From: a virus
Taxonomy: Duplodnaviria; Caudoviricetes
Length of the DNA stretch: 64,000 bases
IMG/VR virus record: IMGVR_UViG_3300025392_000232
Span: 1 to 64,000 of that record
Strand: one strand, 5' to 3'
Below are positions 9,590-58,307 of the stretch, piece by piece. The translations under genes were made by a program, and so were the position numbers. The notes under the pieces were generated by a model. It did not search any database. It was not told the origin of the DNA and saw only the letters and a program-made list of their open reading frames with translations. The first letter of the stretch is position 1. Each line of letters starts with the position of its first letter.

Positions 9590-9762
9590 TCAGTTTTACC
9601 CCATTCAATTTTCAACCAGATTCTCTCGTGAAAATAGTGAACTGCGGTTAACACAATATGTATTAGTACTGCACTTGCAAGGCCAGTCCACAATGCAGTG
9701 ATTAACAATGCTATAACGCGATAGGTTATTGCCCTAACAACAGTTCTTTTATGTGTTTCCAT
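9586..9762 (-). CDS. DUF2061-like small membrane protein (58 aa)
   Basis: Hand-translated METHKRTVVRAITYR...YFHERIWLKIEWG. Confidence 0.7.
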   Translation of the reverse strand: METHKRTVVRAITYRVIALLITALWTGLASAVLIHIVLTAVHYFHERIWLKIEWGKTE

Positions 9763-10493: not shown

Positions 10494-10513
10494 ATGATTC
10501 TCCATGTTTGTTT

Positions 10514-10541
10514 ATTATATAGGTTTTTCTGACAATGTCAA
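10514..10541 (-). promoter_or_regulatory. sigma70-like promoter
   Basis: TTGACA-16-TATAAT upstream of the clamp gene. Confidence 0.65.
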
Positions 10542-35575: not shown

Positions 35576-36085
35576 TTATCTCAGGAATTCCTGCCAGTCT
35601 AAATTATATTTGACAGAATCCACTTGGTGTACTCCTAGTAAAAATAGCACAAAACTGGCTACACTGGACCCACGTCCTAAACCCCAAACTATATTATTTT
35701 CATTACAAGTATCTACAAAATGTTTACACCATTGTAGTAAGGGAATCATTCCACGAGCTTCAAATGCATCTATTTCAGCCTCTACCCGAGCAATTTGCTC
35801 TGGAGTTGTACATCTTGCCAAACACCATTCTTCTACATCAAAGTCTTTGTACTCTGCAGGCATGAACCAGTCGCTTTGAAGCGCAGAGTCAAAATCTTCG
35901 ATATCTATTTGATCTAATTGTTCGTTAAATTTCTGGAATGTAAATCCAGCAGTTTGCTCCAACTGCTCAATATCTTCAGTATAGTCTACTGTGATGTCTT
36001 TGAGGTTGGTTAATTTTCCTTGATAAAGGATTTTGAATATATCTAACGAATTAAAAATAGGATTACCGAATCGATCTAGGCGCAT
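35576..36085 (-). CDS. Stand-alone DNA polymerase III alpha (DnaE) fragment
   Basis: GLGRGSSVASFVLFLLGVHQVDSVKYNL...FL; ends before the catalytic PDID. Confidence 0.8.
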   Translation of the reverse strand: MRLDRFGNPIFNSLDIFKILYQGKLTNLKDITVDYTEDIEQLEQTAGFTFQKFNEQLDQIDIEDFDSALQSDWFMPAEYKDFDVEEWCLARCTTPEQIARVEAEIDAFEARGMIPLLQWCKHFVDTCNENNIVWGLGRGSSVASFVLFLLGVHQVDSVKYNLDWQEFLR

Positions 36086-36121: not shown

Positions 36122-36320
36122 GGTTTTTATTGTCCATTAATTTCTTCAAAGCCGCATTTCTTCGATTGGACAATTCTTCTTTGTAGCTGTCTAGTAACCC
36201 TGCAATCTGATCTCTTACTAGAAAATTACTAGTCATAAAGTATTTTTTGGATAAGTCGCCGATTTTTAGTTCAAGCTCGGCGTCCTTGATTTGACTCAAA
36301 TCACCTGCTAGCGGATGCAT
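36096..36320 (-). CDS. Hypothetical protein
   Basis: 74-aa helical ORF. Confidence 0.7.
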   Translation of the reverse strand: MHPLAGDLSQIKDAELELKIGDLSKKYFMTSNFLVRDQIAGLLDSYKEELSNRRNAALKKLMDNKNLDKLVKVN

Positions 36321-36913
36321 TAATATTCACCTATGTTTTTAAGATATACAGTAGCACCTGCATTTACAGTCCATGCTTCGATAACTTCAATTTTTCCATT
36401 AGCTACTGATACAGTTGGAGGAGTTGTTCCGCCCGACCAACCAGTTGCAGTTCTGAATGTTCCGCCACCCGATGTTGCTAGCGTAGTAGTGTATGTACTA
36501 ATTCCTCCTACTAACAAAATTTTAACAACCGCGTATTGATTATTAGCAGGCCAATTGGTAAATGTTAGTACAGCATTGCCTCCAAGTGTAACTTGTTGGA
36601 TAGGACCATTATTTAAATCAATGTTTGTGCTGGCCGCAACAGTTCCATTATTAAAGAATTTACCGTTAAATTGATAATAAATTCCGTTATGTAGCGTAGT
36701 ACTTAACAAGTCGGTAGTACCAGAAAATGTGTCATCATTTCCAAAACTAGCAACTCTTATAGCATTAGCCTGTAGAGTAGTAATTTCTGTTTGTGCAGAT
36801 GCCAGTGCGGATTGGATAGCTGTGAAATTATCACGGAATCCTTGGCTGTCGTTATCTTGCCCTGCTACCGGGTAAGTTGTACTAATTGTAGAGGGGTTTA
36901 TCAAACTTGTCAT
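36320..36913 (-). CDS. Virion structural (baseplate/tail) protein
   Basis: YPVAGQDNDSQGFRDNF coiled-coil N-terminus, beta-rich C-terminus. Confidence 0.65.
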   Translation of the reverse strand: MTSLINPSTISTTYPVAGQDNDSQGFRDNFTAIQSALASAQTEITTLQANAIRVASFGNDDTFSGTTDLLSTTLHNGIYYQFNGKFFNNGTVAASTNIDLNNGPIQQVTLGGNAVLTFTNWPANNQYAVVKILLVGGISTYTTTLATSGGGTFRTATGWSGGTTPPTVSVANGKIEVIEAWTVNAGATVYLKNIGEY

Positions 36914-39900
36914 ACTGTTATCCTATCGTTTTTGAATACTAGGTATTTATCGCCTAGATATCCGGTTACACTGTCTATTATGAATCTATCTACTGTATAG
37001 TCTAGGGCTTTAAAATCAAACCCACTAAATTTAATATTCAGTAAAATAGTATCGGCTGTTCCTGGTTTACAAAAGCACAGCGGTACACTTAATATATACC
37101 CTAATTGTTCTTTATTTCCTTTTGGAATACTACGCATCCAAAGGGGTAGATAATTGCGTTCTGTTATTCCTACAGCGTTTAATCTATCTTGCCAATTAGA
37201 TATACTATTGGGAAAATATGTATCCGGATTAGGATTACTAGCTTCGTAGCCAGTACTATCTACAGTGATTTGAGGTAAATCTCTATGGCTATCTGGAGCA
37301 TCAATAGTTAAGTTAGCAGAATCTACTGTCCAATAATTTACACTATTGTCTACAGTAATTGTATCAGATTCTGTTCCTGGAGTGTATACAATTTTTTGTG
37401 GGCGGCGTTTGCCGTTAGATTCGGTAGGATCTATCATTTGAATGTATATAACTTCATAAACAGTGGCGCCGCTAATTGGATCTACAGCTAATGCTTTCTT
37501 TATACTGCCAAACTGGAAACGTTTCTTTTTATGATTTAGTCCCATTGCTCCTATATAGGCTGCCGCTGACTGTGTTTGGATTCCTGCATAGACTAACATT
37601 TTTAAATCAGATTGTAATCCAAAGTTTGGATCATTAGTTCTATAGATACTGGTACTTGGAAAGATGCTACTATTATTAATAAATGATTTCCACAGATCTC
37701 TTTGATCCGATTTTAAATATGGACGAGTTATTATATTACTGTATGCTACCGCATTTGGTGTATTAACAGTAATACTAAATTCTTGGGTAAGCGCACTGTA
37801 ATTGTATTGATCTCTTGCTAGTACTGTAAATTTAAACACACGATCTATGCTAGTTGTGTTTACATCAAAAGTTACTCTTCCGCCGTCGAATGTTGTTAAC
37901 CCTGGATTGCCAGTGGCAGGATCAAAGTACTGGCGAGTAGTACCAATAATTTCTCCGTCTAGATTTAAAGTCAATCCGGGTGGCAATCTTCCTGACTGCA
38001 ATTGATATAACATTACTGCATCTGGCACAGTAGTCGTTGCACTAATAGATAACGTACTAATATAGTTTGCAGGAATAGTTCCTAAATTGCCAGGAGTATT
38101 CCAGGAGATAACACTATCGACATCTCCTACAACAGACATAGTAAATGTTCTACTAGAGTTTAGATACTCTTTAACATTGTCGCCTAATCTTGTAGCAGTG
38201 ATTGTAAAGGTATAGTTGGTTGTAACTGCTGGCTGGTAAGGTAACTGCCCATATACATCTCCAGTTCCAGCATCAAAACTCAATCCTTCTGGCAATTGAC
38301 TTAACGACCCAATATAGAATGGAATACCATTAGGTATTGGCAGTTGCAATACTTTGTTTAATGTTAGTCTGTATCTACTATTAACTAGTGTTTCTACGCC
38401 AACAATTTCATATATTAATTCAGTAGCGCCGTCTACGTAGTTGTCAAAGGTAAAGTATTGACCAACAGCCAATGTACCTTTTACATTGCCAACTGTAACT
38501 TGATTACCACCGCATAACAATGTAGTTGCATAACTTGTTCCTAATGCACCTTTAGAAAGTGTGATTGTCGATATTGTTTTAGCAACAATAGTAGTGCCTG
38601 ATGCAATATTTGTACCACTTACTAGTTGTCCAACAACTAAAGAGTTTGCATTTGAAACATTAGATACTGTTGTACTATTAGCAACGAGATCTCCGCTAAA
38701 AGCTAACCCTGTAAAGTTATCAGTATTGTTAACTTGATATGTTACAGCATATACTTCTTCATTAGTTGTTTCTAATCTAAATAGTACATCCAGTGTGTCA
38801 TATAGTGCAACTGGAATAGTTAGATAATTATTAGCTCTAAATGTTCCTAAATGACTGTTTGTAATCCATACAGGAGCTCGTAAATAAGTAGCATCGCTAC
38901 TAAATCCATCTGCCACTCCATTAAAGCTAGTGTTGTCAGCACGGAATTGATCAGTACCTACTACAAATATTTTAAATATTCTTTGTGCATAGTTTACACC
39001 ATCAGTCAATGTAACTCTAAACTGATAGTTTACATTGAGTGTAGTCGGCGGTGCCTGTGTACGGTTAAAGTCAAAGAATACATCATCGTACTGATAGCTG
39101 TCGTAACCGTCAGTAGGAGTCTTACCAAAGTCAAATGCTACCGCATCGTAATATGCATCATCATATGTACCGTTGCCGTCTTTAGGTGTAATTTTAACAG
39201 TAGGCTGAATAAATCCGCTTAACAATCCGTCAGGACTTAATGTAATACCGGCAGGTAACGCACCATCTTCGCTAGCGATAAAATAAGTCAATTTTTGTCC
39301 GACTGCGGTGTTTAGATCAAAAGACTCGATTTGGTAGCTGACATAAGTTTGATCTAATACATATAATTGTTGTCCAGGCCCAATTGGTAAGTAGCCCTCT
39401 CCAGTAACAAAGTTTGGAAAATTTTGTCCAGAAACTGTGATAAAAAATGCTCTGTCGCTAACACTAGATCCTTGGTTAGCACGTATACAAAAATTATAAG
39501 TTGTATTATTAGATACAATATAAGGATTACCTTGAATCCTTGGCCCATGAAGATGTAATCCTGGCGGCAATTCTCCACTAATAACTTGCAATCCTAAATT
39601 AAATGTATCGGCATACAGACCAGCAGTTCTTGCGGTTACACTATTAACATTGCCTGCTAATAAATCTGCACGTTCGACAGCAACAAACGCATCGGCTTGC
39701 ATGTGAACAGTATCGGTATTACGCAAAATTATATCTGATAATGTACTAGATCTTAGCCATGCTAGATCAGTAGGAGCCCACGGTAAATTTTCAAACCATT
39801 GTTGATCACCGTCTCTCACATTTAACATTTGGTTTACAATGATTTTCTGGAAAGTAGTGCCGACCATTGCTCCTACAGCTGGATCTTCTGCTAAACCACC

Positions 39901-41304
39901 TACCCACAGGTCGATGTTGTTTACATCTGTATAGGCAGTTTGAAGTGCAGTAACTACAGAACCGTCAGATGATATTTGCGCAAACGTTGTATAAGGTGTT
40001 AGGCCTAGTACTGTACGCATTTGATTTAAACTTGGTAAACCAAGATCACGACCGCGTTGTATATTTGTAGCGGCCAAATCCATTGCGGCAGGCGGATCAT
40101 TCAACAAGTTTCGTAAATCATCGATAATATGTATGTCTAACTTGTTTGATGTATCGCTAGCTAGTTTACGTAAGAAACCATCAGCACCGCCATTACGTTC
40201 AAACTGTGCAGGTGTTAAGAAAAATGCCTGTGCAAGTGTTAAAGACTCGGTTATATTTCCTGCCTCGTCAACTCTGTCTTGTGCATCGGATACAATACTA
40301 TGACCAAAACGCATAGCGGCAGCGGCAAATTCTACAGTTATAGTTCCATCGACGCCAGGTTTAAATCCTGTGTATGCTGGAATATTATCTGCACCAACAA
40401 CCTTTGGTAACCATTCTTTAAAAGTTATATTTTGAACTTCTGCAATGACAATACTACGAGCACGTTGATATAATTGCTCACCAGTCCAGTCTGGATGTAA
40501 TGTTTTTAACTTGGCTACATGCCAGTTATGTTCTCTAATGAATAATGTTTGTACCGATGTTAAGTCTGGATTTTCAGCACCACGCGGATCGCCAAAAATG
40601 AATTGTCCTGTTACCGGATCGATAGGACCATACTGCCCGTTGCTAGTAGTTAATAATTTACCTGTAGTGGCAATCTGTCCACCTTCGCGCAAGTTAACTG
40701 GATTTTGAAAAGGTGTTGGCCCTTGTGGAACTCCCGGTGGATATGCAACTCCATACACCACACTAGCATCGATCCATCCGGTAACATCGTTCATAGGTAA
40801 TGCAGGATGTTGTGCATCGGTTCCAGTATTCGGTGCAACTGCACTTCTTGTAACCGGTATGTGACTACCGGGAGTTAGTTCAGTATCGCCTGCCGGAACT
40901 ATAACATCAATATTACCTGTGCCAGATCTTGCAAACTCTAAGTCATGTGTTAAGAATTGGCCAAACGCATACATGAATCCACTGTAGCCGTTCGGGTCTG
41001 CTTGATTGCCATGAAAAACTGGATCTTTAACAACCAAGTTACTCACTGTTCTTGCATTAGGTAAATCAGAACGCATCTGATGTATACCATCAACATAGCT
41101 GTTTACACTTGCTCGAGCAAATGGAGCACCTGCACTATTTCTTAAAGGTGCGGTAGGATGATGACCAGATCCGTCAAAACTTGGAGGAGGTACGCCGTTA
41201 AACGCCGCCGCACTTGCTAGCGGTAAAGGTATGTCTACTGGTAGTTCCTGGGGAAATGTTCCAAGTGAAATACCAGATTGCTGTGTCCAGACATTTAACG
41301 CCAT
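36910..41304 (-). CDS. Baseplate-like Ig-repeat structural protein carrying an animal-type heme peroxidase domain
   Basis: Peroxidase motifs FGQFLTHD, TGWIDAS..YG, GDPRGAEN, REHN, RFGHS, NIQRGRD.GL, IDLWVGGLAE, RDGD; then repeated G.LP.GL Ig-like units. Confidence 0.85.
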   Translation of the reverse strand: MALNVWTQQSGISLGTFPQELPVDIPLPLASAAAFNGVPPPSFDGSGHHPTAPLRNSAGAPFARASVNSYVDGIHQMRSDLPNARTVSNLVVKDPVFHGNQADPNGYSGFMYAFGQFLTHDLEFARSGTGNIDVIVPAGDTELTPGSHIPVTRSAVAPNTGTDAQHPALPMNDVTGWIDASVVYGVAYPPGVPQGPTPFQNPVNLREGGQIATTGKLLTTSNGQYGPIDPVTGQFIFGDPRGAENPDLTSVQTLFIREHNWHVAKLKTLHPDWTGEQLYQRARSIVIAEVQNITFKEWLPKVVGADNIPAYTGFKPGVDGTITVEFAAAAMRFGHSIVSDAQDRVDEAGNITESLTLAQAFFLTPAQFERNGGADGFLRKLASDTSNKLDIHIIDDLRNLLNDPPAAMDLAATNIQRGRDLGLPSLNQMRTVLGLTPYTTFAQISSDGSVVTALQTAYTDVNNIDLWVGGLAEDPAVGAMVGTTFQKIIVNQMLNVRDGDQQWFENLPWAPTDLAWLRSSTLSDIILRNTDTVHMQADAFVAVERADLLAGNVNSVTARTAGLYADTFNLGLQVISGELPPGLHLHGPRIQGNPYIVSNNTTYNFCIRANQGSSVSDRAFFITVSGQNFPNFVTGEGYLPIGPGQQLYVLDQTYVSYQIESFDLNTAVGQKLTYFIASEDGALPAGITLSPDGLLSGFIQPTVKITPKDGNGTYDDAYYDAVAFDFGKTPTDGYDSYQYDDVFFDFNRTQAPPTTLNVNYQFRVTLTDGVNYAQRIFKIFVVGTDQFRADNTSFNGVADGFSSDATYLRAPVWITNSHLGTFRANNYLTIPVALYDTLDVLFRLETTNEEVYAVTYQVNNTDNFTGLAFSGDLVANSTTVSNVSNANSLVVGQLVSGTNIASGTTIVAKTISTITLSKGALGTSYATTLLCGGNQVTVGNVKGTLAVGQYFTFDNYVDGATELIYEIVGVETLVNSRYRLTLNKVLQLPIPNGIPFYIGSLSQLPEGLSFDAGTGDVYGQLPYQPAVTTNYTFTITATRLGDNVKEYLNSSRTFTMSVVGDVDSVISWNTPGNLGTIPANYISTLSISATTTVPDAVMLYQLQSGRLPPGLTLNLDGEIIGTTRQYFDPATGNPGLTTFDGGRVTFDVNTTSIDRVFKFTVLARDQYNYSALTQEFSITVNTPNAVAYSNIITRPYLKSDQRDLWKSFINNSSIFPSTSIYRTNDPNFGLQSDLKMLVYAGIQTQSAAAYIGAMGLNHKKKRFQFGSIKKALAVDPISGATVYEVIYIQMIDPTESNGKRRPQKIVYTPGTESDTITVDNSVNYWTVDSANLTIDAPDSHRDLPQITVDSTGYEASNPNPDTYFPNSISNWQDRLNAVGITERNYLPLWMRSIPKGNKEQLGYILSVPLCFCKPGTADTILLNIKFSGFDFKALDYTVDRFIIDSVTGYLGDKYLVFKNDRITV

Positions 41305-41326: not shown

Positions 41327-42856
41327 TTACTGTAATCTGTACCATGTAGTGCCAGTAGCTCTATATACATAGGTAAATGTTGTTGGTGCAGTTACGCTTC
41401 CGGCAAATGTTCCTGATAATGTTGGGCCAGCAGTTAATGCCAATGTTACTGTGTTTGTATGTACAGCAAATTGACAAATTTGCCCATCAACTGGTGCCGA
41501 CGGGAATGTCAATGTTGCAGTTAATGATCCAGCAGTTACTAACAATATATTAGTACTACTAGTTGTACTTAATACATACGTTGTTGATGAACTTACAGTT
41601 ATATAATTTGGAACACTAATTTTTAAACCAGAATGTGTCAAACTTCCGCTAACCGACATACTACCATTGTGTGTTAATAATTGTGTATGATCGATAGTAG
41701 TAGCTAATGTAGATACACCTGAACTATTGGTTGTAGAAAATTTAATTTGTCCCGGAACAAATGTAGCACCTGGAGCGGTACTTGTAACAATTTGAATAAT
41801 TGCCGCAGTTGCCGCAGTAGATCCGTTATAATATCCGCGACCCACAAGACTCATTAATACATCTTGAGATTGTACAGCAGAAGGTGTTGCATAAGTTCCT
41901 CTTGCCTTATTAAAACTTATAGTTGGGCCGCTGGCATCTGAATAAAAATTGTCAAAACGCCCAACCGGTGCACCTGTACTAAGAGCAGTTTGTCTAACAA
42001 TTAAACGTCCCGAACCACCCTCTGTTGTAGTACTTGGCCCAAAAAATATCTGTCCGTCATTACCAAAACGAGCCACTGGTTGGTCGTTACCTGCCGCATC
42101 GCCTATGAAAAACATCAAATTACCTGGCACAATACCAGCTGTAGGAGTTCCTACTACTAGTGTATTAATATATGCAGAATTTTGGAAAGCAGAACCATCG
42201 TAACCTTGCCAAGTAAGACTATGAATAACATCACCAGTAGCTAGTGCTGTTGGAGTTATGTTAGTGCCTCTGCCTTTTCTGAACAATATACTATTTGCAC
42301 CGCTAGCAACGTTGTTATAACTATCTAATATAACTACACCACGACCAGAGTTGTTAGCAGTGACCTGTATGGTACCGTTGATATTTTGTAATAAGTTTGT
42401 AGTTTCATTCCAAGTAATATTTGCACTTGCACTTAAGGCAGTTCCGTTCGCCGCATAATAGGCCAAACTGTTTGTTGTACCTGAATTGATTACCGAGCTA
42501 CTAACTGGAACAGATGCTGTAATTCTATTATTAGCATCATCATATGTAAATGTAATATTAGTATTATAAGCGTTACCCGCAACAAATGCCGCTGCCACTG
42601 CATCCTGAGCACGTTCTGTTGTAAAGTACAAGTTAGTTGGACTACCACTTGCTTCTGCAATGTTATCAGCAGTAAGTACAACCGCACCAGTTTGTGTGTT
42701 TACTGAGCTAACAAGGCTAACAGGATTACCACCAGCAGTGGTACCGTCACCTATATAAACTTTTTTAGTATCGGTAGTATAAATTATTTCGCCAACACCC
42801 GGTGTTATTGCTGTTCTAGCTGTACCGTCTAAACCTCTTCTTAATTGTAATGCCAT
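41327..42856 (-). CDS. Tail fibre / spike protein
   Basis: N-terminal LQLRRG...GEIIYTTDTKKVYIGDG; two RGT...P.A....D repeats. Confidence 0.75.
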   Translation of the reverse strand: MALQLRRGLDGTARTAITPGVGEIIYTTDTKKVYIGDGTTAGGNPVSLVSSVNTQTGAVVLTADNIAEASGSPTNLYFTTERAQDAVAAAFVAGNAYNTNITFTYDDANNRITASVPVSSSVINSGTTNSLAYYAANGTALSASANITWNETTNLLQNINGTIQVTANNSGRGVVILDSYNNVASGANSILFRKGRGTNITPTALATGDVIHSLTWQGYDGSAFQNSAYINTLVVGTPTAGIVPGNLMFFIGDAAGNDQPVARFGNDGQIFFGPSTTTEGGSGRLIVRQTALSTGAPVGRFDNFYSDASGPTISFNKARGTYATPSAVQSQDVLMSLVGRGYYNGSTAATAAIIQIVTSTAPGATFVPGQIKFSTTNSSGVSTLATTIDHTQLLTHNGSMSVSGSLTHSGLKISVPNYITVSSSTTYVLSTTSSTNILLVTAGSLTATLTFPSAPVDGQICQFAVHTNTVTLALTAGPTLSGTFAGSVTAPTTFTYVYRATGTTWYRLQ

Positions 42857-42871
42857 TATATTTCTCCTACC

Positions 42872-43342
42872 TTAAAAGGTACCTAAGTCGAATCCGTTTG
42901 CGGCAGGATTTGAAAATGTTCCCTGGTCGCCAAATGTTGTAGCCAGTAACGTGTTTAACTGGTTTTGTAATGCTCGCATATCTATGCCCCATACTGTAGC
43001 TTGTACATCTCCAGTACCAGTTATATTATGACTGTTTAAATTTAAATTGCTACCCAGTGTTGCATTAGTATCTGACGATAATGTATATCCAGCAATATTA
43101 ACCGATGTTGCCGTTGAAGTAACAGTTATACCATTACTACCGGTAATTGATTTAAATTGCAATATACCTGCTGTATCTGCTACAAAAACACCCTGCCCAC
43201 TACCTAAGTTAGTACCATTTATGTTGGTAATTTGACTATACAAATCTGTAAAATTTGAATTAGTTTTAGTAAATGCGGTACGGAGATCGTCCCCTGTACC
43301 GTCATTTGCATAGCTACCTAGGTTAATTGTTAGTTGAGTCAT
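42872..43342 (-). CDS. Baseplate/tail protein with T4 gp9/gp10-type N-terminus
   Basis: INLG..ANDGTGDDLRTAF.K.N.NF..LY. Confidence 0.75.
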   Translation of the reverse strand: MTQLTINLGSYANDGTGDDLRTAFTKTNSNFTDLYSQITNINGTNLGSGQGVFVADTAGILQFKSITGSNGITVTSTATSVNIAGYTLSSDTNATLGSNLNLNSHNITGTGDVQATVWGIDMRALQNQLNTLLATTFGDQGTFSNPAANGFDLGTF

Positions 43343-43378: not shown

Positions 43379-46300
43379 TTACGCTCTTCCAACAGCTACT
43401 TGAATTATGCCAGCTTCGCCGTAGTCCTTGTCTTCTAGGGCTTTTCCAACAATACTGCCCAATGTTGGAGTTAATGCTTTAACAGCATAGCCAGGAGTGG
43501 CACTAGTTGTCAACATATCGCCTTTCTTAACACGACCGACAACCTTACAACTTACTCGTCCTGCAAGTGCAATCAAGTTCTTCTCGCCTGGACATGCATC
43601 ATACATGATGTAAGCCGCATTGTCAGAAACAATACCAGCTAGTCTTGTATCATTCATTGTGTCAGTAGTAGTAACTTCTTTATCACCGCCAAACACTAAG
43701 ACAGTACCAATTTCATAAGTCTTGTCGCCTTCATAGTATTCTGCTAAGTCAGCGGCATAGGTAGCTGTAATAGTTGCATTAGTACCCAAACTCCAAGCTC
43801 CGTTGATTGTGCCAGAACCGTAAGTTCCAGGACCGTTACCATTTAATGTAGCAGTGTTAACTGCACCACTAAAGTGTCCAGAGCCGTCGTCTGAGTTTAA
43901 GAATATACTAGCAGTACCGTTAGATGCCACATACAATCCCCACTTGCTATTAGAAACACCACCAGGATTTTTAATAGCACCGCCTGCTCCGCTATATCCA
44001 AAACCAACACCGTACATAGTACCTAGGTCAGTGCTACCTGGAGCATAAGTTCCACCAATGCTATAAATTACACCTGAAGTACTTGTAGTTTCTACACTAG
44101 GATAGTTACCGTCTAAGTAACCTAGGCCTGCGGCAGTGCGGCGTATCTTACCGTTATGCGACCAGTTACCAGTTATAGTACCAGCGGTAGTTGCACTACC
44201 CGATGTAATGTTAGTAGTTTGTAGTGTACCGTTGTTGAAACTGAATACAGCATTTGCACCTAATGCCCATGAACCATATAACGAACCAACAATACTTGTA
44301 TCTGTAGTAGTAGCACCAGACTGAATACTGACACTTTGTATAGTTGCATTTAACAATCCATTAACAGTTGTAGTTGCACTACCAGCCACATCAACTGTTG
44401 ACAAGAAATTAAATGCACCTGGTGTATAGAAGTTTAATGTACTACCAGTAGAATCAATGGTCTTACTACCATTAACTTTTAATTGCGTTGTAGTAATTTC
44501 ACCGTTGGTACCAGTTTTAACAATCTTACTTCCAGAGCCAGTTGTTGTAATTCCTAATAATCCATAAGTGTTGTTGCTAGTATTACTATTGTCGTATTTT
44601 GCTAACATGACACTAGCCGCCGCATCGGTAGTTACGCTATTGGCAGCTCCAAACAAAACGTTCTTTATACCGTCACCATCTGTAACTACGTTAGCTGGAG
44701 TAATTAACGATGGCACTGCTGGAACACCGCTACGGTTACCTAACAAGTAACCAGTGGCCATTTGACGTAGTTTACTTAATGCAATACCGGTAGTTGAGCT
44801 AGTAGAGTCTAATAAATCTACCCAACCTGTTCCACTTACGTTAAACACATTATTGTTGAATACACTTAGACCCAAGTCTGCCTGTACAATAGCACCTGCT
44901 AGACCTGAACCGCTGGTGTTAGTTGCTAATCCTTTAGCAACGTTCATTGCTAACTTGCTTTGAACAATAGCCGCACTGGCATTAACCATGCTGTCAACAA
45001 TCACACTTCCTTGAATTGTAGTTACTAGTGTACCTGGAGTACCGTGTGTAAATGTGAATCCAATATGTGATCCAGCTGGACTACCTGTAGGAGCACTAGA
45101 TGCAGGAGGAGCAATATTGGTCCACTGACTTAGTGTGCTATCGTATAATAAGAAGTTTCCGTTAGCGTAGCTTGTGAATACAAGTGTGCCGCTAGCACCA
45201 GTTAAGTTTCCACTGAGTGTAACTGTACCACTTGCACCTGCTGGGAATAATCCTGATGTAAGACTAACTGACAACACAGTTTGTCCGCCAGTATACCCAG
45301 ACCCTGATTGTAGAACCATACCAGGAACAATAGTTCCATATACACTACTCAAACTCAATGTATATACAGTAGGTAATCCGCCACTTGCGGCAAATCCTAC
45401 GTATGTTCCAGTAGCTTTAACAGCAACATCGCCTAATTTGTAAAGATTGTTTAGTCCTGTTGAACTCGCATCTACATAGCCTCTATTTACAGCATCGTAT
45501 TGTGTAATACTACTGTTAGGCATGAACAAGTTACCAATAGTGTAACCTGCCATGTTCAAGTTACCCTTCATGGCTAATGCACCGTTTAATGCTAGGTAAC
45601 CTGGCCCAATTAAGTTAGTATTAGCAACTGGAGTACCACCATAGTCTAGACCCAATCTGTAATCAACAAAGCTACGAATAGCACTTTGGGTTGGCACAGT
45701 ATCTGGTGCGTTCTGTGTCATATTTGCATCTGTTGAGAATTCAGATACAACCACACCGCGTTTGAATCCTAGACCGTCTAAGTTACTTAACGCAATACTA
45801 GCGGAGAATGTAACTGTACCTGTACCTTGGTCAACTTTAAAGAAACGTCCTACACGGAAAATACCGTTTTGGTCTGTTGATACGTGGAATACACGACCTA
45901 CTGTTTCTTCTACAACGTCATTACTATCATTACTTGCAATAGCCGCATTACCATAAATTTGGTTTGGATAGTTTGTAGTAATGAAACCACCAGTACCAAT
46001 ATCTAAAAAGTCATGTCCTGTAGCACGACAAGTACTAATACGAATAGTAATTTGTCCAGTTTGTGTCGCTGGATAACCCATACGCAATGTTGTACTTTGA
46101 CTTGCATTAAATGGACGACTAATACCTAAACTACTACTTGATGCACTAGTTACTTCTTTTGCAACTACAGTGGTAGCCGCCGCACCTGCTGTACCTGGAC
46201 TAAACGGATAGATTAAAGTAAGTGTTGTACTTGATGCAGTCGAATTAGCAGTTAACCAGTAACCGTTATACAATGAGTTTGTATTACCAGTTACACGATA

Positions 46301-49300
46301 ATATGTTCCAGCAGTAATACTTGTGCTAGGAATTGTAAACGATACGTTGTAGTAATTGGTATAAGTTGTACCATTGATAGTTTGTGTTGCTGTCAATGTT
46401 GGAGTACCAATGGCACTTGGAGTAATATCCTGATTAATACCACCATAACTTGGTGAGTAGAACGTTGTAGTTGCACTACTACTTGAAGTAATAGTTGTTA
46501 ACGCACTACCGCCTTTAGTATTAGCAATAGTAATGTTATTACCAGATAAACTAACAATATAGAACGTTGGGTTAGCAGTACCAACACCTGAACCTATACC
46601 AGTTGCTTTAAAAGTTGTACCTATGTTGTTATTAGCCGCACCAATTGCAGTAAAATCTGTATAGTTTGTAGTACTACCGGATGCATTAATACCGGCACCG
46701 CTCACGATTGTATAGGAGTTACCAATTACAAACGATCCAGCAGTCACAGCCGCAGTTGGAATCCCACCAAACGCTGTTCCACCAAATATAATCTTATTAC
46801 CAATACTTACATTAGTTACTGAACTCAATGTAATAGTACTTGGACTTGTAGTTGTAGTAGCATTACCACTTGTACCTGGGTCTGTTGGATACAACAAACT
46901 CATATTGATTGTGTTTGTACTTGCAGTAGTTGTAGTTACAACTTGTGGATTAGATGTTAATACTGCTGTCAATACACCGGTACCTGGTGTACTCCATGTC
47001 ATTTGACTTCCGCTACCATCAGTTAACACAAATACAGGAGTTAGAAGATTAGATCCACTTACTGTAATCTTATTACCAATAATACTTGCAATATAGTAGT
47101 TGGTTAATGTTTGTAAATTACCAAATGTTGTTCCGCTAAATGTAATTACGGCACCAGTTTGTAGATTAGCAGTAGAATTTAATGTGATTAAATTAGTACC
47201 GCTAGTTGTAGTCGATGCAGTTCCTGAATTACCGCTTAGTGTAATTGTCGGAATACTAGTATATCCAGATCCAGGACTTACACGAGTAACAGAACTAATA
47301 CTACCAAAGGAATCAATTGTACAAGTTGCAAGTGCATGACTTGTACTATTGTCTGCTAGGCCACCACCTGAGAACTTGATAGTCGGTGCTTTAACATATC
47401 CGCTACCTGCATTAGTAATTGTGATACTGGCTACAGTTGCTACTAGTATCGCAGTAATACTTGTGCTAGGTTGTACCCATACACCTGGACTCACTGTAAA
47501 CTGAGTACTGCTATCAACACTCTGTACAATAGTTGAACCACTAGGTGTTGTAGCGGCACCTTCGACGAATGCACCACTAGCACTAGTTGTTATAACCATA
47601 CCAACTTTAATATTAGTAGTATCTGCTACAGTAAGCTGACTTGTATTAGTTATTGCTGTAACTAGATAATTACCGTTATAGTTAGTATTGGCATTACCTG
47701 TAACACTCAGATAACTATCAACTGGAGGGTATGCATATATTGTGTTGAATGGAATCTGGTAAGTAACAACTTTACTTGTAGTACTACCAGTTGCTAGTGC
47801 ATCACTGATATAGGTCATACTGTTAATACCAGTACCATAAGCACCAATATTAGCTACTGGGTTACTATCTATTTGTAGATATCCGTTTACACTAAATCCA
47901 CCAAATGTAATCGAACCACTTGGAGTTCCAGTAGCCGGTGTATCAAGAATAACTACTGCTTGTGTATTTGTAGTTCCAGGGATAACACTAGTTGTATAAG
48001 ATACAACTTTTTGTGTTCCATTAAAACCAGTACCAGTTATAATTTGTCCTGCACTTATTGTACCTGAAAAGTTTTGTACTGTTAAAGTATATGTAGTACT
48101 TACTGCGGTGTAAGCACTATATAAACCAGTACCAACGCTAGTAGGTTGTACATAGCTGACAACACGATGTGTTCTGCCATTCCAAGCAAACAAGTAAGTA
48201 CCAGTATTCATCTGACTGATTGTTGCGGCATCGCTAATCTGTAATACTGCAATCTTGTTATCGCCTATATTACCACCTTGTGTGCTAGTTGAGAAGTATA
48301 CCGATCCTACTGCGGAAATAGCAGGAGTTCCTGACAATGTTATTACAGTATTAGCACCTGACACACTGGTACTTACAACTTTGATATTTTGGAATCCATA
48401 TCCGCCAACATATTGTCCTGTGGCAATACTACCGACAATAGATGAAGTTATCACATACAATGTTGTTCCACCACTTGTTGGAGTCAATGCTACATTAGCA
48501 GTTGCCACAGTTACAGTTGGATCAGCATTAAACATGTTGCTGGTATCAACAACAAACTTGTAGTAGACAAACGAGCTGTCAAACTGTAACAAACTTTGGT
48601 TTGCCGGTAATTGTTCACCAGTGGACTGTACCAAGTTATACGCAATAATACGATAAATGGTAGCCAAGTTGTTTGTGTACTGCAATGCGGTACTTGGACG
48701 AACTGGTTTTACGTTATCAATGTTATAGAACAAGATATTTTGTAGTACACGCATTGTAATAACTTGTCCGTCATACAATGGATAAGCCAATCCGCCAGTT
48801 GCAGTATTTTCTGTACCAGCAGTACTCAATGTTAGTTGTAATACGTTTTGTCCGTTAACTGTTACACTAGTATGTGTGACTGTACTGATCAAGTATCTAG
48901 TAATGCCACCACCAGCTAAGGTGTGGTCAATTTCCAATTCAGTTGTACCAGGTGGAATGTATTCCCAACCAATAGCATAAACACTCAACGCTGCCTGTGT
49001 AGCAGTAGGAGTCATTGTAGCTGTGAACGCACCTTGCTTATAGACACGAGCACTTTGCATCATGTTATAAGATAAGTTTACACTATCTGGTTGTTCGGTA
49101 ACGTCACTACCAGTACCACGTAGACCATATACACCGTTGGCATTAGAACCAGCTACCGAACGAATCTGGCCACCATTCAATGCCCAGTAGGCAGTATAGC
49201 AGTAGTAGGTAAATGTTGAAACTTGTTCAGTTAAACCAGCGTTGGTACACAAAATACCATAACCTAAGTCGTTGATCTGTGTATAATCGTTGGCCAACAT

Positions 49301-52300
49301 GGACTTGTTACCGCCCATTTCCATATTAATACTAATTCCAGCACCGTTGTTAACGTATGTAATTGTATTAGATGTTAATGTTGTCTTGGCAGTTACGATG
49401 TTGTTATAATCTGTAACCAGTGCGGAAGTTTGCCCATTAATCATTGATGTTAATGGAGCAGTTCTAGTGCTAGTATCAAATTTGCCATCGGCAACATAGT
49501 CTGTAAATATAGCGCATAGTGTAGCTAGTGTAGTGGCTTCTGCGCTAGTACCTGCTGTGCCTGTAGTATTTTGTGTAAGCACATTACCAGCACTCTTGGT
49601 CACAGCAGTCTTTTGAACTATCTGTCCAACAATAGTACTTAGGTAACCAATTGCGGCACCATTCAACAATATAAGATTGCTATTGTATATCCATTGAGCA
49701 ACGTCATAGCTAGCAGTTGTACCAGTATATAACATGTCATATGTCAATGCGTCAATTGCAAATCCAATATTATTGCTCATTGTTACTGCGCTGTAACTAC
49801 TGTAACTTGCTACGTTGTAGTTAGCGGCAAGTCTTGCTACAATTTCTGCTTGTATAAATGCACGGTTAGCTTGTAATAATGTTTTTGCATTTGTTACATT
49901 TGCAGTAGCGTTTGTTGGATTAGGGAATGTTAGTGTAGGAATACCTGCACTTGTATTACCATAGATACCGTTGACAATAATGTTGTTAACAATATTAACA
50001 CTACTTGCTGCCGAACTAATGCCAGCCGCATCAACTGTTCCAAGAGTAGCAATTTGAGTTGCTATATAACTGAACGCTTGTGTTACTAGTGTTTGTGGTA
50101 CACCGACTACGGCATTTTGTGGTTGCAAGAATACAATACCATACTTGACACTTTGGTAATTAGAACCAAATACCAAGTCAAGATTGACAGCATCAATTAA
50201 ACTAGGTGCTGTTACACTAGCACTATTTACTGTAATAGTTCCGCCTGACAGGTTTGTAGTTAAAATGCTGTTGCCATAACTTGCACTTGGATAAAATGGT
50301 GTAGCGGTATCTAAACCAAGTACGGCAGTATATGTTCCACTGTTATAACTTAGTACATTATTAATCTGATAACGTGCTCCTGATACATAGAACGCACAAG
50401 GTGTTTGTGGTGGGCGAACATCCAATCCACTGTTCAAGTAACCAGTAACTGTGATAGTTTGACCAAGGCTGGCAATACTAGTAATAGTTCCTTTTAATCG
50501 TCCTGCAAATCCGTCAATGAACTGTCCACCAGCAAAACGCTGACGGTTAGTACTTCCGGAGAAGCTAGCAGATTCTTGTGCGTACGGTGATTTAGTTTTG
50601 ATCTGACCTGTTGGGTCAAGCACCATCATGAAACCGCCGTGTCCTTGACAGCTGACTAACTTAATACGAGTTGCATCGTTACACAAGAATACGTCCATCA
50701 ACTTGTTATTCTTTGGAGTACTTGTAACATCTAATGGATTAGTCAAGTAGTGACGTCCGTAGTTAAATGTGCCATAGATATGCCAGTTGCCAACTGTATA
50801 AGTTGCCACTGTTGCAAATGGATAGATAACAGTACAACTCATTGTGTTGCCGCTAACAGTATTAATAACAGCCTTACCAGCAGTTCCTGTTTCGCTAGTT
50901 GCATCAACAATGATCTTACCAATCCAATATGGACTTGCTTGTCCAGATCCTAGAGTAGCAGTAATTGTTCCAGTTGTTCCATTGATAGATAATGTTGTTC
51001 CTGTAATGGCGGCAAAGTCAGAACTAAAATCAATCAAACCCAGTTGCAAACCGTCAATGACTGCATCGCGATAGAAGAATGTTGTTCTCCATGGAGATTG
51101 TGAAACACGATCTAATGGACGAATAATTGTACGACGGAAGTCGTCACCGAAGATAGAAACGTTAGCTGGTAATTTGATTGGATAATCTTCGTAGTAAGTT
51201 CCTGACTCGACAAAGATTTTAATGTTCAAGTCTGCTACAGTTTCACCAAAGTCTAGCTTTTCACCAAATGTCGCATTGCTGTTAGTTAAATTACTTAGTA
51301 ATGCTTTGTTCAACGTTACAGTATTGCCACTCACCCCAGTTACAAATGTTCCAGTAGCAATTCCACCACCAGTTACACCCATGCCAACTGTAATGGTACT
51401 AATGCTATTAAATGGAATTGTATAAGTAGTTGATGATGCTGTGAGTGTATACTGTCCAATTGTTCCGGTAACAGTAGTTGGGACTACATTAAAGAATCCA
51501 GGGCGAGTCATGTTGACAGTAATTGTGTCGTAGTTTGTACTTACACCTGCGGTGTAACTTATAATTTGTCCATACGCACTACTGTTAACACCTACTAATA
51601 CCTTACCAGGAATAATATGATTACTACCAGCTTGTCCTTGGTCAACAGATCCGTTACCACCGTTAGCAAATGTAATAGTGTAATAGCCAGTACCAAAACT
51701 TGGTGCAGGAGCCGCACCAATACCGTTGGCAATAATACTAACAATAGTATTCATGTTGGCATTGAACTCTGTAATTGGTGTAGCAGTAAATGTTAGTGTA
51801 GCACCATTACCAGGTGTGCCAGCTGGTGCCGCACTAATAGTAACCAAAGTTGGGCTTAGTATATTTGTAATTGTTACAGATGTAGTATTGGTAAATCCAC
51901 TACCTGAAATAGTCATTCCTGGTACTAGTGTGCCAGTAACATTTGATAATGTTAATGTGGTTGTTGTATTACTTACAAATGCCGCAGTAGCAGTATTAGT
52001 TCCTACTGTGGCATTATAGGTTGTTCCAAGTGTAGCATTGGTCTGTTGTGTTACTAGTGTTTGATAACGTGTTTGTGTAACTTGATTCAAGCATTGAGTA
52101 GCCAATTGTTGTGCAAACTGTATGCCGTCAACTGTTTCTGAATATTGTGTACCAATAGCAATAGCCTTGGCTGACACGTTTTTGTAATAACTCTTACCAG
52201 CAGTGATACTTTGATATGTACCATCTGTTAATAAGTCTATGATCATCCCATCGATGATATAGCCTATATCTCGTGAACATGTAGCTTGATTATAACTAAA

Positions 52301-55300
52301 TCCGCCTGCAAATGTAGTTGATAGATAACTTATTACACTATTACTAATAGTAACTGCATTGTTTTCAATAATGCCAAATGTGGTTTGTAAACTAGAACTA
52401 TAGTTAGTAGTATCGGGGTAAGTGGCAACAGCAATTTGTACACTAGTACTAATAACACCAGTTACTAATGCTACTAAAGTAGTGATAGTAGTTGCTTGAC
52501 CTGAACCAGCACTCCAGCTAGCATTGCTAACTTGATTTGTAATCTTACCGGCAACAGTTTGACTACCAGTAACTGTTGAAGCAAAGCTAACGCTTGTTGC
52601 TGTACAATTAGTTACAGTCCAGTAACCGTTGTAACCAGTAGGAGCCATTCCCTGAATGGTAATAACTTGTCCATTGGTATAAGGTGCAGATCCTTGATTA
52701 GCAAAAGTTATTGTGGCAGTTGTACCATTACCACTAGCTCCTGTTGTTGTAATATAGTTTCCAGGAGCAGGACTTGACGCACTATTAGATATGACATCTC
52801 TAACTACGTTGCTTAGATGGTTAAGGCCGGCTAAACATGCATCTTTATGTGAAGGCAATAATTGTGCAATACCGTTGGCATAATATTGATTGGCAGCCTG
52901 CACAGTTGCAGAGTTACCGCCATAGGTAATATCATATGCCAATGCTTCTAATACATAAGTTACATCTCGTGTTGATTGGCTTAGGCTGTAAGGAACATTA
53001 GGATATGCGTTAGTCATAAACGCATTAATCTCAGCTGTAATATAAGGTATGTTAGCTATAATGGCAGCTTGTGCGGCAACATTACTAGCGGCCAATCCAC
53101 TTGGATTAGTAAATGTTGGAGTAGTTCTAGAGTTGATACCTTGGTTTACTAAATTTAAAATATTATTAAACAAGCTGGCGATTGTTGCTTGTTGTGTAGG
53201 ATCGTTTAGAACTGGGAAGTTATTGTTTACGTAGGTAACTGCGCTGGTTTCTAAAGCAACTTTATTATACTGAATAGTTCCACTAGCAGGATTTGTAAAT
53301 GCTCCAACGATTCCAGTTAATGTACTTGATACACCAGTTAATACTGGATAGATAGAAGTTGCACTTGGCTGACTTACGCTATTAACAATAGCCTGGATAC
53401 TTGCAACGTTAGCACTAATAGAACTACTAGCAACACTACCTCCAGATAATGTTACGTTAGCATACTGAATAACACCAGTTTGATATAGTGTAGCTGGTGG
53501 GTTATTGGTAATAACAGCCTGTGCTAATGTGTTGATATAACCAATTGCCGCAACAGTTCCAGATTGTTCGTAGCTGGCAATTTGTAATTTACTATTCAAC
53601 CAATATGATAATCCAGCATAGATACTTGCACTATTTCCTCCATACATTGTATCGTAACATAGTGCCCAAACAATATATTTGACATCGCGTTGGCAAGTTG
53701 TTTTACTGAATGTCAGTGTTGGGTAGTTAGCTTGCAAGTATGCAATGATTTCTGTTTGAATAAAATTAATGTTGTTTAACAACAATGATACTGCACTAGT
53801 TTCACCACTGCTAGAAACATAAGTTTCATTTAAGAACAAGATAACATTTGATTGTATAGTACTTAGACCGGTTAGTACAGTTGTACGTGATGGGTTCTTA
53901 GAGTAGTTTACACCGTATGTATAACTTGGAGCAACACTTATTGGATTAGAACTTAGACCGTTATTGATAACATTAATCACATAACCTAAAAGTGTACTAA
54001 CTTGTGTTGCAGCCTGCGAACTTCCTACACCAGCAGTAGTACTTTGTGTAGTATTATTACCAACAGACTTGGACCAACTTGTACTACCGGTAATTATAAA
54101 ACCGATAATACTTTGCAATCTAGTAAATGCACTAGCTACCTGTGCATATTCTTGACTAATAGTACTTACACCGCTACCATTATAGTAAGCATCTACCGCA
54201 ATGACAGTAGCTGTGTTACCACCATATAGCAAGTCAAATGTTAATGCATCGATTAGGTATCCTGTGTCTCTACGACAGTTGTCTTCGTTATACAATGGAA
54301 TGCTGCCAGGTACTAAATTAGCATTAATGTATGCAATAGTCTCGTCAATTAAAAATTGGCGGTTAGCAATCAATTCAGCCGCGCCATTTGTAACACCAGA
54401 CAATGCACCACCTAGTGTTGAACCTGTTGGATTACTAAATGTTAATGCTGGTGCACCTACTGTACTTACAGCGTTGATAATACTAGTAACCACATTCATA
54501 CTATTAGTAATGCTAGTAATAGCCGCAGAGTCACTTAGTAACGCAATTACTTGATCTCTAGCGTAGTTTAAACCTGCAATAGTCTGTGCTTTTTGACTAG
54601 TAGTCACAGTTGAACTATAACTTCTTAAGTAAGAAAATGCCGCAGTGATTGTGCGATAATTAGTGCCAAAAATTAAATCATCTAATACTGCATTAACAAT
54701 CAATCCAACGTCGCGTGAACATTTGTTAGTGTCATATGTAAATCCAGTACTTTGACTGACTGCTGGGAATGATGGTGTCGGTAGGATGCCGGTAACAATT
54801 ATGTTACCAATATTGGCACAAATTGAAGTAATAGTAGCTGTTGCACTAGGAACTGCGGCTACAGCAGGTATTGCATTAATATTGACAGCAAGATTATTTA
54901 ATGTACTTACAATTCCTGATGGAGCAGTAGTGCTAGCCTCCATCGATCCACCATCAGTAGTTAAACCATAAGTAGGACCATTTAGTGTTTGACTAATTGT
55001 AATTGTTGCACTGTCTAGAATACTTGCAATGTAATAAGTATTACCTGTAATTATATTACCAAAACTTGTTCCGCTGAAAGTAATAGCAGTTCCTACTACC
55101 ATACTCTTCGTACTGGCTACTGTGATAGTATTGTTAGTTCCTGTTATACTTATTGGTGCACCTAGCGTACCTGCATTTTGACTAATGCTAACTGTGTATG
55201 TACCTGCAACACCTAGACCAGTTAATAGCCCAGTAATTTTCGTACCAGCTGTTACACCAAATCCAGTAATAGTCATGCCAACTGCAAATCTACCAGCGAT

Positions 55301-57097: not shown

Positions 57098-57421
57098 TTA
57101 AACTCCGAAACTGCTACCGCAGCCGCATTTGGTTGTTGCATTAGGGTTGTTTATAACAAAGTTACTACCCATTAATTCTTCTTTATAATCTATCTCTGCA
57201 CCTGTCATATATTGCATACTCATGCTGTCTACAAGTACTCGAAATTCATCTAGGGGGATTTCAAAATCATCTTCGTTGGCTACTTCGTCTAGAGTAAAGC
57301 CGTAGGAAAAACCTGAGCAACCGCCACCTTGTACAAACGCTCGTAATGCTAAACTAGGATTTCCTTCTTCATAAAGGATATCTTTAATTTTTTCTTTTGC
57401 TGACGCTGAAATTGTGATCAC
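57098..57421 (-). CDS. erpA: A-type Fe-S cluster carrier (ErpA/IscA)
   Basis: [14 protein letters not shown]...CGCGSSF. Confidence 0.92.
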
Positions 57422-57481: not shown

Positions 57482-57775
57482 ATGTACTTGACCACAGAAT
57501 ACCAGCATACACAGTATGTACGTACCAGCAAGCGCGGTAAACATCATACATATAGTCGTAAAAAGACTATAGTTGTGTTTAGGTGTGATTCATGTCAGGG
57601 TATTTTCAAGAGAGATAAAGGAAGTATGGATCCTAATCGCTTGAATAACAACTATTACCACGTGTGTGGTGATTGTGATGCTAAAAAGTTTGCCCAGGAA
57701 AAGGGTGTAGAAAGTCGTAAAGTTTGGGATATGCCTGTAAGTAGTCTTAAGACGTTAGGCCAATTCGGGAGCTGA
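57482..57775 (+). CDS. Small basic Zn-ribbon protein
   Basis: CDSC...CGDC; TAAATA directly upstream. Confidence 0.7.
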   Translation: MYLTTEYQHTQYVRTSKRGKHHTYSRKKTIVVFRCDSCQGIFKRDKGSMDPNRLNNNYYHVCGDCDAKKFAQEKGVESRKVWDMPVSSLKTLGQFGS

Positions 57776-58307
57776 CAATATTCCAGTTGATAATCGTCCA
57801 CTGGTTAGATAGATAACGCTTTTTATCGGCTTGATAATCTAAAGCCCACGCATGTTCCCACCAGTCAACTAGTAGTACTATATCCATCTTTACTTGATGA
57901 TTTTTAATAGTTTTTATTTCACCGTTAGTAGCTAGATAAATCCATCCTGAGCCTTGTATTTTCATAGCTTCTTTTTCAAATTCAGTTTTAAAATTATCAA
58001 AACTTTTGAAATACTTGTTGATAAAATTACCAGCAATATTAGTTGGTTGATTCGATGCTACCGGTGCGTGATATTGTGTGAATAAAATATGGTGTAAAAA
58101 TGCACCTGCTTCGTTAAAATCAGCATCTCCTTCACCATTATTAAAACGATCAACATATCCTTTGTACAATTTACCATAATGATAGCGCATTGTGTCTTCG
58201 GATATAGCCGGCTCTAATTCATCCTTTTTATAAGGAAGTATTGCCTGCTCTAAAGTTTTGGGACTTTTACCCTCGTTTAGACTAACATATCTAATAAAGT
58301 TGTACAT
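57747..58307 (-). CDS. Fe/Mn superoxide dismutase
   Basis: LPY...LEP.IS..T..YH, GAFLH, GSGW..L, DWWEHA. Confidence 0.92.
   Translation of the reverse strand: MYNFIRYVSLNEGKSPKTLEQAILPYKKDELEPAISEDTMRYHYGKLYKGYVDRFNNGEGDADFNEAGAFLHHILFTQYHAPVASNQPTNIAGNFINKYFKSFDNFKTEFEKEAMKIQGSGWIYLATNGEIKTIKNHQVKMDIVLLVDWWEHAWALDYQADKKRYLSNQWTIINWNIVSSRIGLTS

Follow-up and report, generated by a model that had tools for sequence, protein, structure and literature searches.

Why would a phage carry an animal-type haem peroxidase inside a protein encoded among its tail fibre genes, and what could such an enzyme do there? This question is raised by the window analysed here, i.e. the first 64 kb (64,000 nucleotides) of the 95-kb IMG/VR record IMGVR_UViG_3300025392_000232. 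In this window, one gene (36910-41304, on the minus strand, as are all features of the window that are given with coordinates below) encodes a protein of 1464 amino acids (aa), P0001, that consists of an N-terminal stub, a peroxidase cassette, Ig-like repeats and a 2H-like C-terminal module. The in-frame fusion of peroxidase and scaffold is real, and our analysis suggests that it joins what is probably an active enzyme to a protein that is likely carried on the virion.

An earlier note on this DNA, made from the letters and their translations alone, had recognized the peroxidase and proposed a Pfam search as a check. This search returned a full-length match to An_peroxidase (PF03098; E 3.8e-116; 389 bits against a cut-off of 25; profile positions 3-530 of 530) that places the domain at aa 42-540 (39685-41181), and a search of the record's own genome with the same profile gave 392.7 bits. 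The coordinates 39680-41150 in the earlier note agree with the Pfam domain to within ~30 bases, and the six motifs that it had named in a peroxidase domain of ~490 aa (QFLTHD, TGWIDAS, GDPRGAEN, RFGHS, QRGRD and DLWVGG) are all present in the translation. The reading frame is open throughout with no in-frame stop codon. An_peroxidase and, after it, He_PIG are the only Pfam domains of the 1464-aa protein; the RTX and dockerin repeats of the long peroxicins and peroxidockerins (families 5 and 6 of Zamocky et al.) were not found in it by Pfam.

The earlier note had also inferred that the domain was inserted into a structural protein, and the alignment with homologous proteins that it proposed confirms an insertion into a pre-existing phage protein. 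The C-terminal 315 aa of the protein have 927 matches, and most of the members of this scaffold family have 820-1100 aa, He_PIG repeats and no peroxidase. The peroxidase-less homologues share the first 29 residues, i.e. the N-terminal stub (aa 1-29; 41218-41304), which has the consensus MALNVWT..G..G.F...LPL in the alignments and is common to members with and without the peroxidase, and then run straight into the first VISG.LP.GL repeat. In the alignment, the peroxidase is a clean block of ~535 aa between this stub and the first Ig repeat. Two loci, L007 and L008, provide the same comparison among close relatives: they have the same genes, and their flanking DNA is 99.5-99.7% identical on both sides, and the encoded proteins P0007 (1466 aa) and P0233 (933 aa) are 99% identical apart from a gap of 533 residues. 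At the DNA level, the two loci are distinguished by an exact 1599-bp in-frame indel (533 codons) with CCAGG at both junctions. By analogy with this indel, the cassette of the window extends from aa 30 to ~564 (39613-41217). Further pairs with and without the domain are 83-92% identical and differ by 533-539 aa.

The architecture is not confined to the window. In a search of 5.8 billion proteins, ~46 clusters combine An_peroxidase with He_PIG (1330-1640 aa; peroxidase domains 48-97% identical; contigs of up to 172 kb from JGI, ENA and Logan assemblies), and 15 further IMG/VR contigs carry the peroxidase protein. In four other loci the gene order is kept, with a giant fibre protein, a small protein, a fibre-sized protein, the peroxidase gene and a ~200-aa protein; beyond the latter, the conserved order continues with a DNA_pol3_alpha fragment, Cpn10, a clamp loader and PhoH. 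Because the fusion recurs in many independent assemblies with the same gene order, a chimeric assembly, which the earlier note had raised as a concern, is excluded.

Within the scaffold family, the peroxidase comes and goes. On a tree of the C-terminal module its presence is scattered, and the well-supported branches require at least 8-9 changes; in the peroxidase tree all phage domains form one clade. Moreover, the two trees do not pair the same proteins: P0018 and P0026, for example, group as sisters by their peroxidase domains and are widely separated on the scaffold tree. Scattered presence together with a single peroxidase clade implies that the cassette has been repeatedly exchanged, lost, or both; because the trees were made with FastTree and are unrooted, gains and losses are not separable in them. 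These comparisons show that the cassette is dispensable and mobile within the scaffold family.

The position of the cassette also varies. In nine clusters (the P0035, P0047 and P0046 groups), the domain is located after the last Ig-like repeat and just before the C-terminal module, i.e. ~1000 residues further along than in the window. In five other clusters (P0029, P0030, P0040, P0044 and P0045), the domain at the N-terminal site is itself broken by a beta-rich insert of 75-190 aa after position ~140, near the breakpoint of a circular permutation in Chloroflexota proteins that is described below. That these five represent truncated domains lacking the distal His was considered and ruled out: they use the N-terminal site, and direct reading finds GQF[LI]TH[DE] in all of them. 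Other members of the scaffold family carry other cargo, including an N-terminal ubiquitin-family domain (P0201, E 1.9e-12) and a CBM5/12 module (P0164); P0046 has a weak match to E1_FCCH (28.9 bits, compared to the Pfam cut-off of 29.5), and in L006 an S8 peptidase of 550 aa is encoded separately, two genes beyond the peroxidase protein on the downstream side. The scaffold acts like a platform for display in which several loops tolerate insertions.

Is the inserted domain an enzyme? Its top solved relatives are a bacterial 528-aa enzyme (8s6c, E 3.5e-79) and DdPoxA of Dictyostelium (6erc, E 4.7e-63). Alignment to these solved relatives assigns Q116, H120 and R241 to the distal triad, E244 to the ester-forming Glu and H335, N414 and R417 to the proximal triad, which aligns with His325-Asn403-Arg406 of DdPoxA. 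In the DNA, the distal helix motif Q116-F-L-T119-H120-D121, with the halide-site Gln, a Thr for the ester Asp, the catalytic His and the Ca-ligand Asp, is at 40942-40959; the distal Arg241 and the ester-forming Glu244 (R-G-A-E; both residues kept in 46/46 phage clusters) are at 40573-40584; the proximal haem ligand His335 (RFGHS) is at 40300-40302; and its partners Asn414 and Arg417 are at 40063-40065 and 40054-40056, respectively. TGWIDAS corresponds to T175-S181 and QRGRD to R417-D420, as checked at the codons. The residues of the Ca2+ site (D121, T175, W177, D179 and S181, in a T-x-x-x-D-x-S loop) are all there. The earlier note had read a Thr in place of the Asp that makes the second ester bond, and alignment to 8s6c and 6erc indeed puts Thr119 at this position, which is occupied by Asp in 8s6c (GQFLDHD) and by Ile in 6erc (GQFLIHN). 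With Thr119, the domain lacks the D-H-D hallmark of the two-ester enzymes (families 1, 2 and 6: LPO, EPO, peroxidasin, LspPOX). Thus, as judged by alignment, every catalytic and haem-binding residue is intact except the Asp of the second ester, and the domain is predicted to work like the two-ester haem peroxidase group without being a member of it.

These residues are conserved across the phage clusters. R241, E244, N245, H335, W177 and D179 are kept in 46/46 clusters, N414 and R417 in 45/46, and Q116 and H120 in 46/46 when the alignment is combined with direct motif reading in the five interrupted clusters. Position 121 is Asp or Glu in 41 of the 46 aligned clusters and D or E on direct reading in the remaining five. 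Position 119 is Thr in 43 of 46 and, on direct motif reading, also in the other three. Pairwise dN/dS is lowest in the peroxidase domain (0.05-0.08, compared to 0.07-0.19 in the Ig region and 0.09-0.13 at the C-terminus), figures that are only rough because dS is near saturation; they indicate that the domain is under strong purifying selection. With its residues preserved in this way, the domain is probably an active haem peroxidase.

What chemistry might be expected of it is suggested by DdPoxA. In this enzyme, which has Ile at the position of the ester Asp, the haem is held by a single ester bond through its Glu; iodide and thiocyanate react at >1e8 per M per s, bromide at ~15 per M per s and chloride not at all (PMC5787809). 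Because the replacement of the Asp by a non-acidic residue goes with one ester in DdPoxA, a single haem-protein ester is predicted for the window's domain. By the same analogy, we expect the enzyme to be DdPoxA-like, i.e. fast with iodide and thiocyanate, poor with bromide and inactive with chloride.

Where the domain came from is partly indicated by its cellular relatives, the nearest of which are ~50% identical to the phage domain. The sister of the phage clade comprises 16 clusters of 626-aa proteins (support of the parent node 99, shorter homologues included). Near-identical copies of these proteins are present in freshwater Chloroflexota metagenome-assembled genomes, i.e. at 98% in a TK10 bin from Lake Biwa and at 92% in Lake Zurich. 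Such Chloroflexota peroxidases are encoded at L112:2417-4297 (P0257), L113 and L114, and the neighbouring genes at the one locus examined are cellular. The 626-aa proteins are circularly permuted, with residues 75-442 matching aa 171-540 of P0001 and residues 479-594 matching aa 42-160. The permutation, together with the two loop insertion sites, suggests that the ends of the domain are near each other in space. The idea that Thr119 is a phage-only change was ruled out, since the Chloroflexota sister clade also has Thr; RTX proteins have Asp at this position, and the next group out from the phage and Chloroflexota clades comprises RTX-type bacterial peroxidases with D-H-D. At this depth of divergence, neither a donor nor the direction of transfer can be named. 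The kinship with Chloroflexota may, as judged from the sequences, point to the host of the phage, although we regard it only as a lead.

The earlier note had further proposed that the peroxidase is displayed on the particle. In a collection of 50,697 phage records (INPHARED-derived), neither megablast with the gene nor tblastn with the peroxidase domain gave a match. In the same collection, tblastn matched only the C-terminal part of the protein, to gp329 of Agrobacterium phage Atu_ph07 and gp119 of phage Phosso (23-27% identity across the shared C-terminal part, E ~1e-14; for gp329, 27% identity and E 2e-14 by tblastn and E 1.4e-26 by Foldseek). Both proteins have a Peptidase_S8 domain near the N-terminus followed by He_PIG repeats, and both are encoded beside tail-fibre genes. 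Importantly for the present question, gp329 was detected by ESI-MS/MS in the Atu_ph07 virion proteome (3 peptides, 2.08% coverage), as were its neighbours gp326-328 (PMC6102473 Table S5). Thus, the fibre-gene context and the virion homologue speak for display, which for the window's protein itself is extrapolated from them. By this analogy, we consider the peroxidase protein a likely virion component.

The same evidence bears on the possibility that the protein is not a stable part of the virion and is instead made late, acting in the infected cell or being freed at lysis, as a soluble enzyme with an oxidative or antioxidant function that happens to be joined to an Ig-repeat protein. In line with this, the evidence that places the window's protein in virions is all indirect, the known phage peroxidases are cytoplasmic auxiliary genes such as ahpC (PMC12542629), and the gene borders replication genes downstream. 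However, the domain is in frame within a conserved scaffold whose gene is flanked by fibre genes in all of the relatives examined, the homologue in Atu_ph07 was detected among virion proteins, and relatives of the scaffold carry modules of an extracellular type, i.e. CBM5/12 and the subtilisin-type S8 peptidase of gp329. A soluble enzyme is, therefore, unlikely.

The folds of the scaffold do not bear out the term "baseplate-like" used in the earlier note: there is no PHROG or Pfam baseplate match in the protein, and the models consist of cadherin-like Ig strings and a 2H-like C-terminal domain. A weak match to gp9/10_N is confined to the neighbour at 42872-43342. The Ig-like region (aa 565 to ~1183; 37756-39612) with its He_PIG repeats is modelled as strings of cadherin-like beta-sandwiches, and Foldseek with a 924-aa scaffold model (pLDDT 66) gave only generic cadherin-like Ig matches in the PDB. 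We infer that the first Ig-like domain begins with the 29-aa stub as its first strand. The C-terminal module (aa 1184-1464; 36913-37755) is the most conserved part of the scaffold. Foldseek with its model (pLDDT 79, pTM 0.72) found nothing below E 1e-3. A VIA search with the same model identified Usb1 (5v1m) as the best match (Z 11.1; rmsd 3.5 over 171 residues), and the top 20 matches are all 2H proteins (Usb1, then LigT, CPDase, AKAP18 and Acb1), with the next match dropping to Z 4.6. There was no phage structural protein among the 2H-fold matches returned. The two H-x-T/S-x motifs of this fold are absent, with no invariant or nearly invariant His at aa 1150-1464 in 24-54 homologues. Because it lacks a conserved His, the module is probably non-catalytic and structural.

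The genes around the fusion are those of a fibre block. Immediately upstream is a 509-aa tail fibre with an Mtd_N-type N-terminus (41327-42856), followed by a 156-aa protein with a T4 gp9/gp10-like N-terminal domain, i.e. a fibre connector (42872-43342), and a giant fibre-like protein of 4570 aa (43379-57091) that matches PHROG tail-fibre families only and no Pfam family. In relatives, the giant protein ranges from 2618 to >4381 aa, and in the closer ones the small protein also has a gp9/10_N-like domain and the fibre-sized protein an Mtd_N N-terminus. Downstream, a gene for a 197-aa protein (36320-36913) overlaps the stop codon of the peroxidase gene; this protein has no PHROG match, is syntenic in relatives and looks fibre-like at its N-terminus by eye only, and L006 has larger genes in its place. 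A side observation concerns the Mtd_N-type fibre gene just upstream of the scaffold gene, which is the divergent spot between L007 (7250-10095) and L008, two phages that are 99.5-99.7% identical elsewhere: ~750 bp are unalignable and the next 2.1 kb are only 95.3% identical, which suggests targeted diversification or recombination of a receptor-binding fibre.

In the remainder of the window, a family-B DNA polymerase, ClpA/B, DnaJ, peptide deformylase, a holin, GH19, PhoH, a clamp loader and GroES are encoded, in a layout that resembles the one described for Atu_ph07. CheckV estimates that the record is 26% complete, implying a genome of ~360 kb, and gives 44% for a 161-kb relative; the source is best described as an uncultured jumbo myovirus of ~360 kb related to Atu_ph07/Rak2-like phages. 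The similarity of a stand-alone fragment of 169 aa (35576-36085) to DNA polymerase III alpha is limited to the NTPase part, and the fragment has the same place in all relatives; among the genes listed for Atu_ph07 there is likewise a "DNA polymerase III alpha subunit" gene that is short, at 534 bp. At 5525-11314, sugar-nucleotide-type enzymes (ADH_N, GFO_IDH_MocA, UDP-glucose/GDP-mannose dehydrogenase) adjoin the family-B DNA polymerase and may function in the modification of DNA or of surface glycans. Just upstream of the giant fibre gene is a 186-aa Fe/Mn superoxide dismutase (SOD; Sod_Fe_N plus Sod_Fe_C; 57747-58307), and between the two lies a gene for a 107-aa HesB/IscA-type Fe-S cluster assembly protein (PF01521, E 6e-19; 57098-57421). 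Close SOD homologues are present in at least 596 IMG/VR stretches, i.e. this is a lineage-wide gene of these jumbo phages. We considered the SOD, 17 kb upstream of the peroxidase gene, as a dedicated source of H2O2 for the peroxidase and rejected this idea because the SOD also accompanies peroxidase-less scaffolds.

We suggest the following model for the function of the fusion. The protein would fold in the cytoplasm and bind haem b with one covalent ester through Glu244. Folding in the cytoplasm, as required of a phage structural protein, would fit a domain without cysteine; the window's peroxidase domain has none, as is the case for 29 of the 46 phage domains. The protein would then become part of the virion in the form of a fibre- or whisker-like appendage, with the N-terminal stub, the 2H-like C-terminal module or both as its anchor. 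Outside the cell, the enzyme would use H2O2, either ambient or released by the host, to oxidize components of the host envelope or matrix, either directly or by way of iodide, thiocyanate or organic radicals, and would thereby aid adsorption or penetration. In Atu_ph07 and Phosso, the proteolytic counterpart would be the S8 protease that the scaffold carries.

Several points weigh against this model. It presupposes a suitable host, substrate and supply of H2O2, and the window's protein has no match to any PHROG family over its entire 1464 aa. gp329 is a distant homologue, with 27% identity over the C-terminal third, and was detected by three peptides in PEG-purified phage. The whiskers of Atu_ph07 look mainly capsid-associated. 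Because most members of the scaffold family, even in near-identical phages, lack the domain, the peroxidase is not needed for infection as such. The roughness of the dN/dS figures is to be counted here as well. Hence, we put forward the whole chain from fusion to surface oxidation tentatively, as a proposal that falls somewhat short of probable, and oxidation of the host surface as the role of the peroxidase is possible although rather doubtful. Stated more broadly, we speculate that some freshwater jumbo phages carry an active, particle-borne haem peroxidase that makes oxidants at the host surface from H2O2 and thereby breaches or modifies the envelope or matrix, as a self-contained cassette that is gained, lost and shifted among loops of one Ig-repeat appendage protein and shares ancestry with a permuted enzyme of lake Chloroflexota; in this full form, the proposal is on the unlikely side.

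A virion peroxidase could also be protective, consuming H2O2 or organic peroxides near the particle or the entry site and thereby limiting damage to the virion or blunting an oxidative response of the host. Peroxidases do remove H2O2, and this lineage invests in the handling of reactive oxygen, with the SOD and the Fe-S assembly gene adjoining the fibre block. On physical grounds, however, a few enzyme molecules per particle cannot lower the level of a freely diffusing solute. Furthermore, a co-substrate is needed, and the products would themselves be oxidants beside the virion; the SOD is equally present in phages with a peroxidase-less scaffold and, therefore, provides no specific link. Altogether, protection seems quite unlikely.

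The domain could instead serve mainly in binding or adhesion with catalysis irrelevant or lost, as in the peroxinectins, which join a peroxidase to cell adhesion; dual oxidases keep an inactive peroxidase domain (PMC4420034). The loss of the ester Asp and the five clusters with 75-190 aa inserted inside the domain could be understood in this way. By contrast, residues with a role in catalysis only are kept in 45 or 46 of the 46 clusters, down to ~50% identity, which pure binding would not require, and this makes a non-catalytic function very unlikely. We attach a similarly low probability to cross-linking, in which a virion peroxidase would make dityrosine or similar bonds that tether the particle to the host or harden the appendage. 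Peroxidasin, in the accessible part of the literature on it, is a precedent from the same superfamily that acts in basement membranes, and its multidomain architecture is resembled by the Ig-rich scaffold. However, peroxidasin acts via HOBr, which one-ester enzymes make poorly, and nothing here points to a target for cross-links. Finally, that the fusion is an artefact of assembly or gene calling could be argued from its source in a single metagenomic contig and can be dismissed, given the same open frame in ~46 clusters with the same gene order and in 15 further IMG/VR contigs, and the absence of a stop codon from the frame.

If the model of surface oxidation is correct, the fusion could represent the first oxidative and cofactor-dependent enzyme known from a phage particle and would add redox chemistry to the repertoire of phages, and the success of infection would depend on the H2O2, iodide, thiocyanate or phenolic substrates available locally in lakes. 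Natural pairs with and without the domain, with 99.6% identical genomes in which the cassette is the only difference, are ready-made controls for its function. A large cofactor enzyme that is nested into loops of small Ig-like domains at two sites, and is permuted in a cellular relative, is also of use for protein engineering and phage display. Lastly, the physiological role of the bacterial members of the superfamily is itself a question without an answer so far (PMC4420034), and the phage context could give a first functional handle on this branch.

Compared to known systems, the domain is closest in sequence to cellular enzymes. The freshwater Chloroflexota peroxidases of 626 aa share with the phage domains ~50% identity and the Thr substitution (GQFLTHE), and differ in their cellular context and in that the quarter of the domain with the distal His is placed after the rest. 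The bacterial peroxidases (8s6c, LspPOX-type and the RTX "peroxicin"-like protein of Paeniroseomonas aquatica) are 45-51% identical over the whole domain and have the same catalytic residues and Ca site; unlike the phage domain, they have the canonical D-H-D (99 of 115 short homologues matching the motif pattern) and secretion modules (RTX, dockerin, T9SS), and none is part of a phage structural protein. DdPoxA belongs to the same superfamily and fold class (the match extends over aa 42-533) and shares with the phage domain both triads, the ester Glu and a non-acidic residue for the ester Asp. However, it is a secreted, glycosylated, stand-alone eukaryotic enzyme and has Ile at this position, whereas the phage domain has Thr, is nested in another protein and has neither cysteines nor a signal peptide.

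On the phage side, gp329 of Atu_ph07 and gp119 of Sinorhizobium phage Phosso, described as "extracellular serine proteinase" or S8 peptidase, have the same plan, i.e. an enzyme on the N-terminal side, He_PIG repeats and a homologous C-terminal module; by contrast, their enzyme is a subtilisin-type protease and they belong to cultured phages of soil rhizobial hosts. The earlier note knew of no characterized virion peroxidase, and in agreement with this, our full-text literature searches for a phage or virion haem peroxidase returned only horseradish peroxidase (HRP) reagents and ahpC-type auxiliary genes, and none is present in the 50,697 phage records. To our knowledge, the phage enzymes described as acting on the host surface are all hydrolases, lyases or peptidases and are cofactor-free. 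As outlined in the accessible part of PMC5380687, phage virion depolymerases and lysins (tailspike glycosidases, lyases and tail lysins) resemble the window's protein in that an enzyme domain on an appendage is directed against the host surface. They differ in that the window's domain would be a haem-dependent, H2O2-consuming oxidoreductase, i.e. an enzyme with a different chemistry. Thus, the concept of a virion-associated enzyme on an appendage protein is a known one, and what this fusion would add to it, by analogy with these systems, is cofactor-dependent oxidative chemistry.

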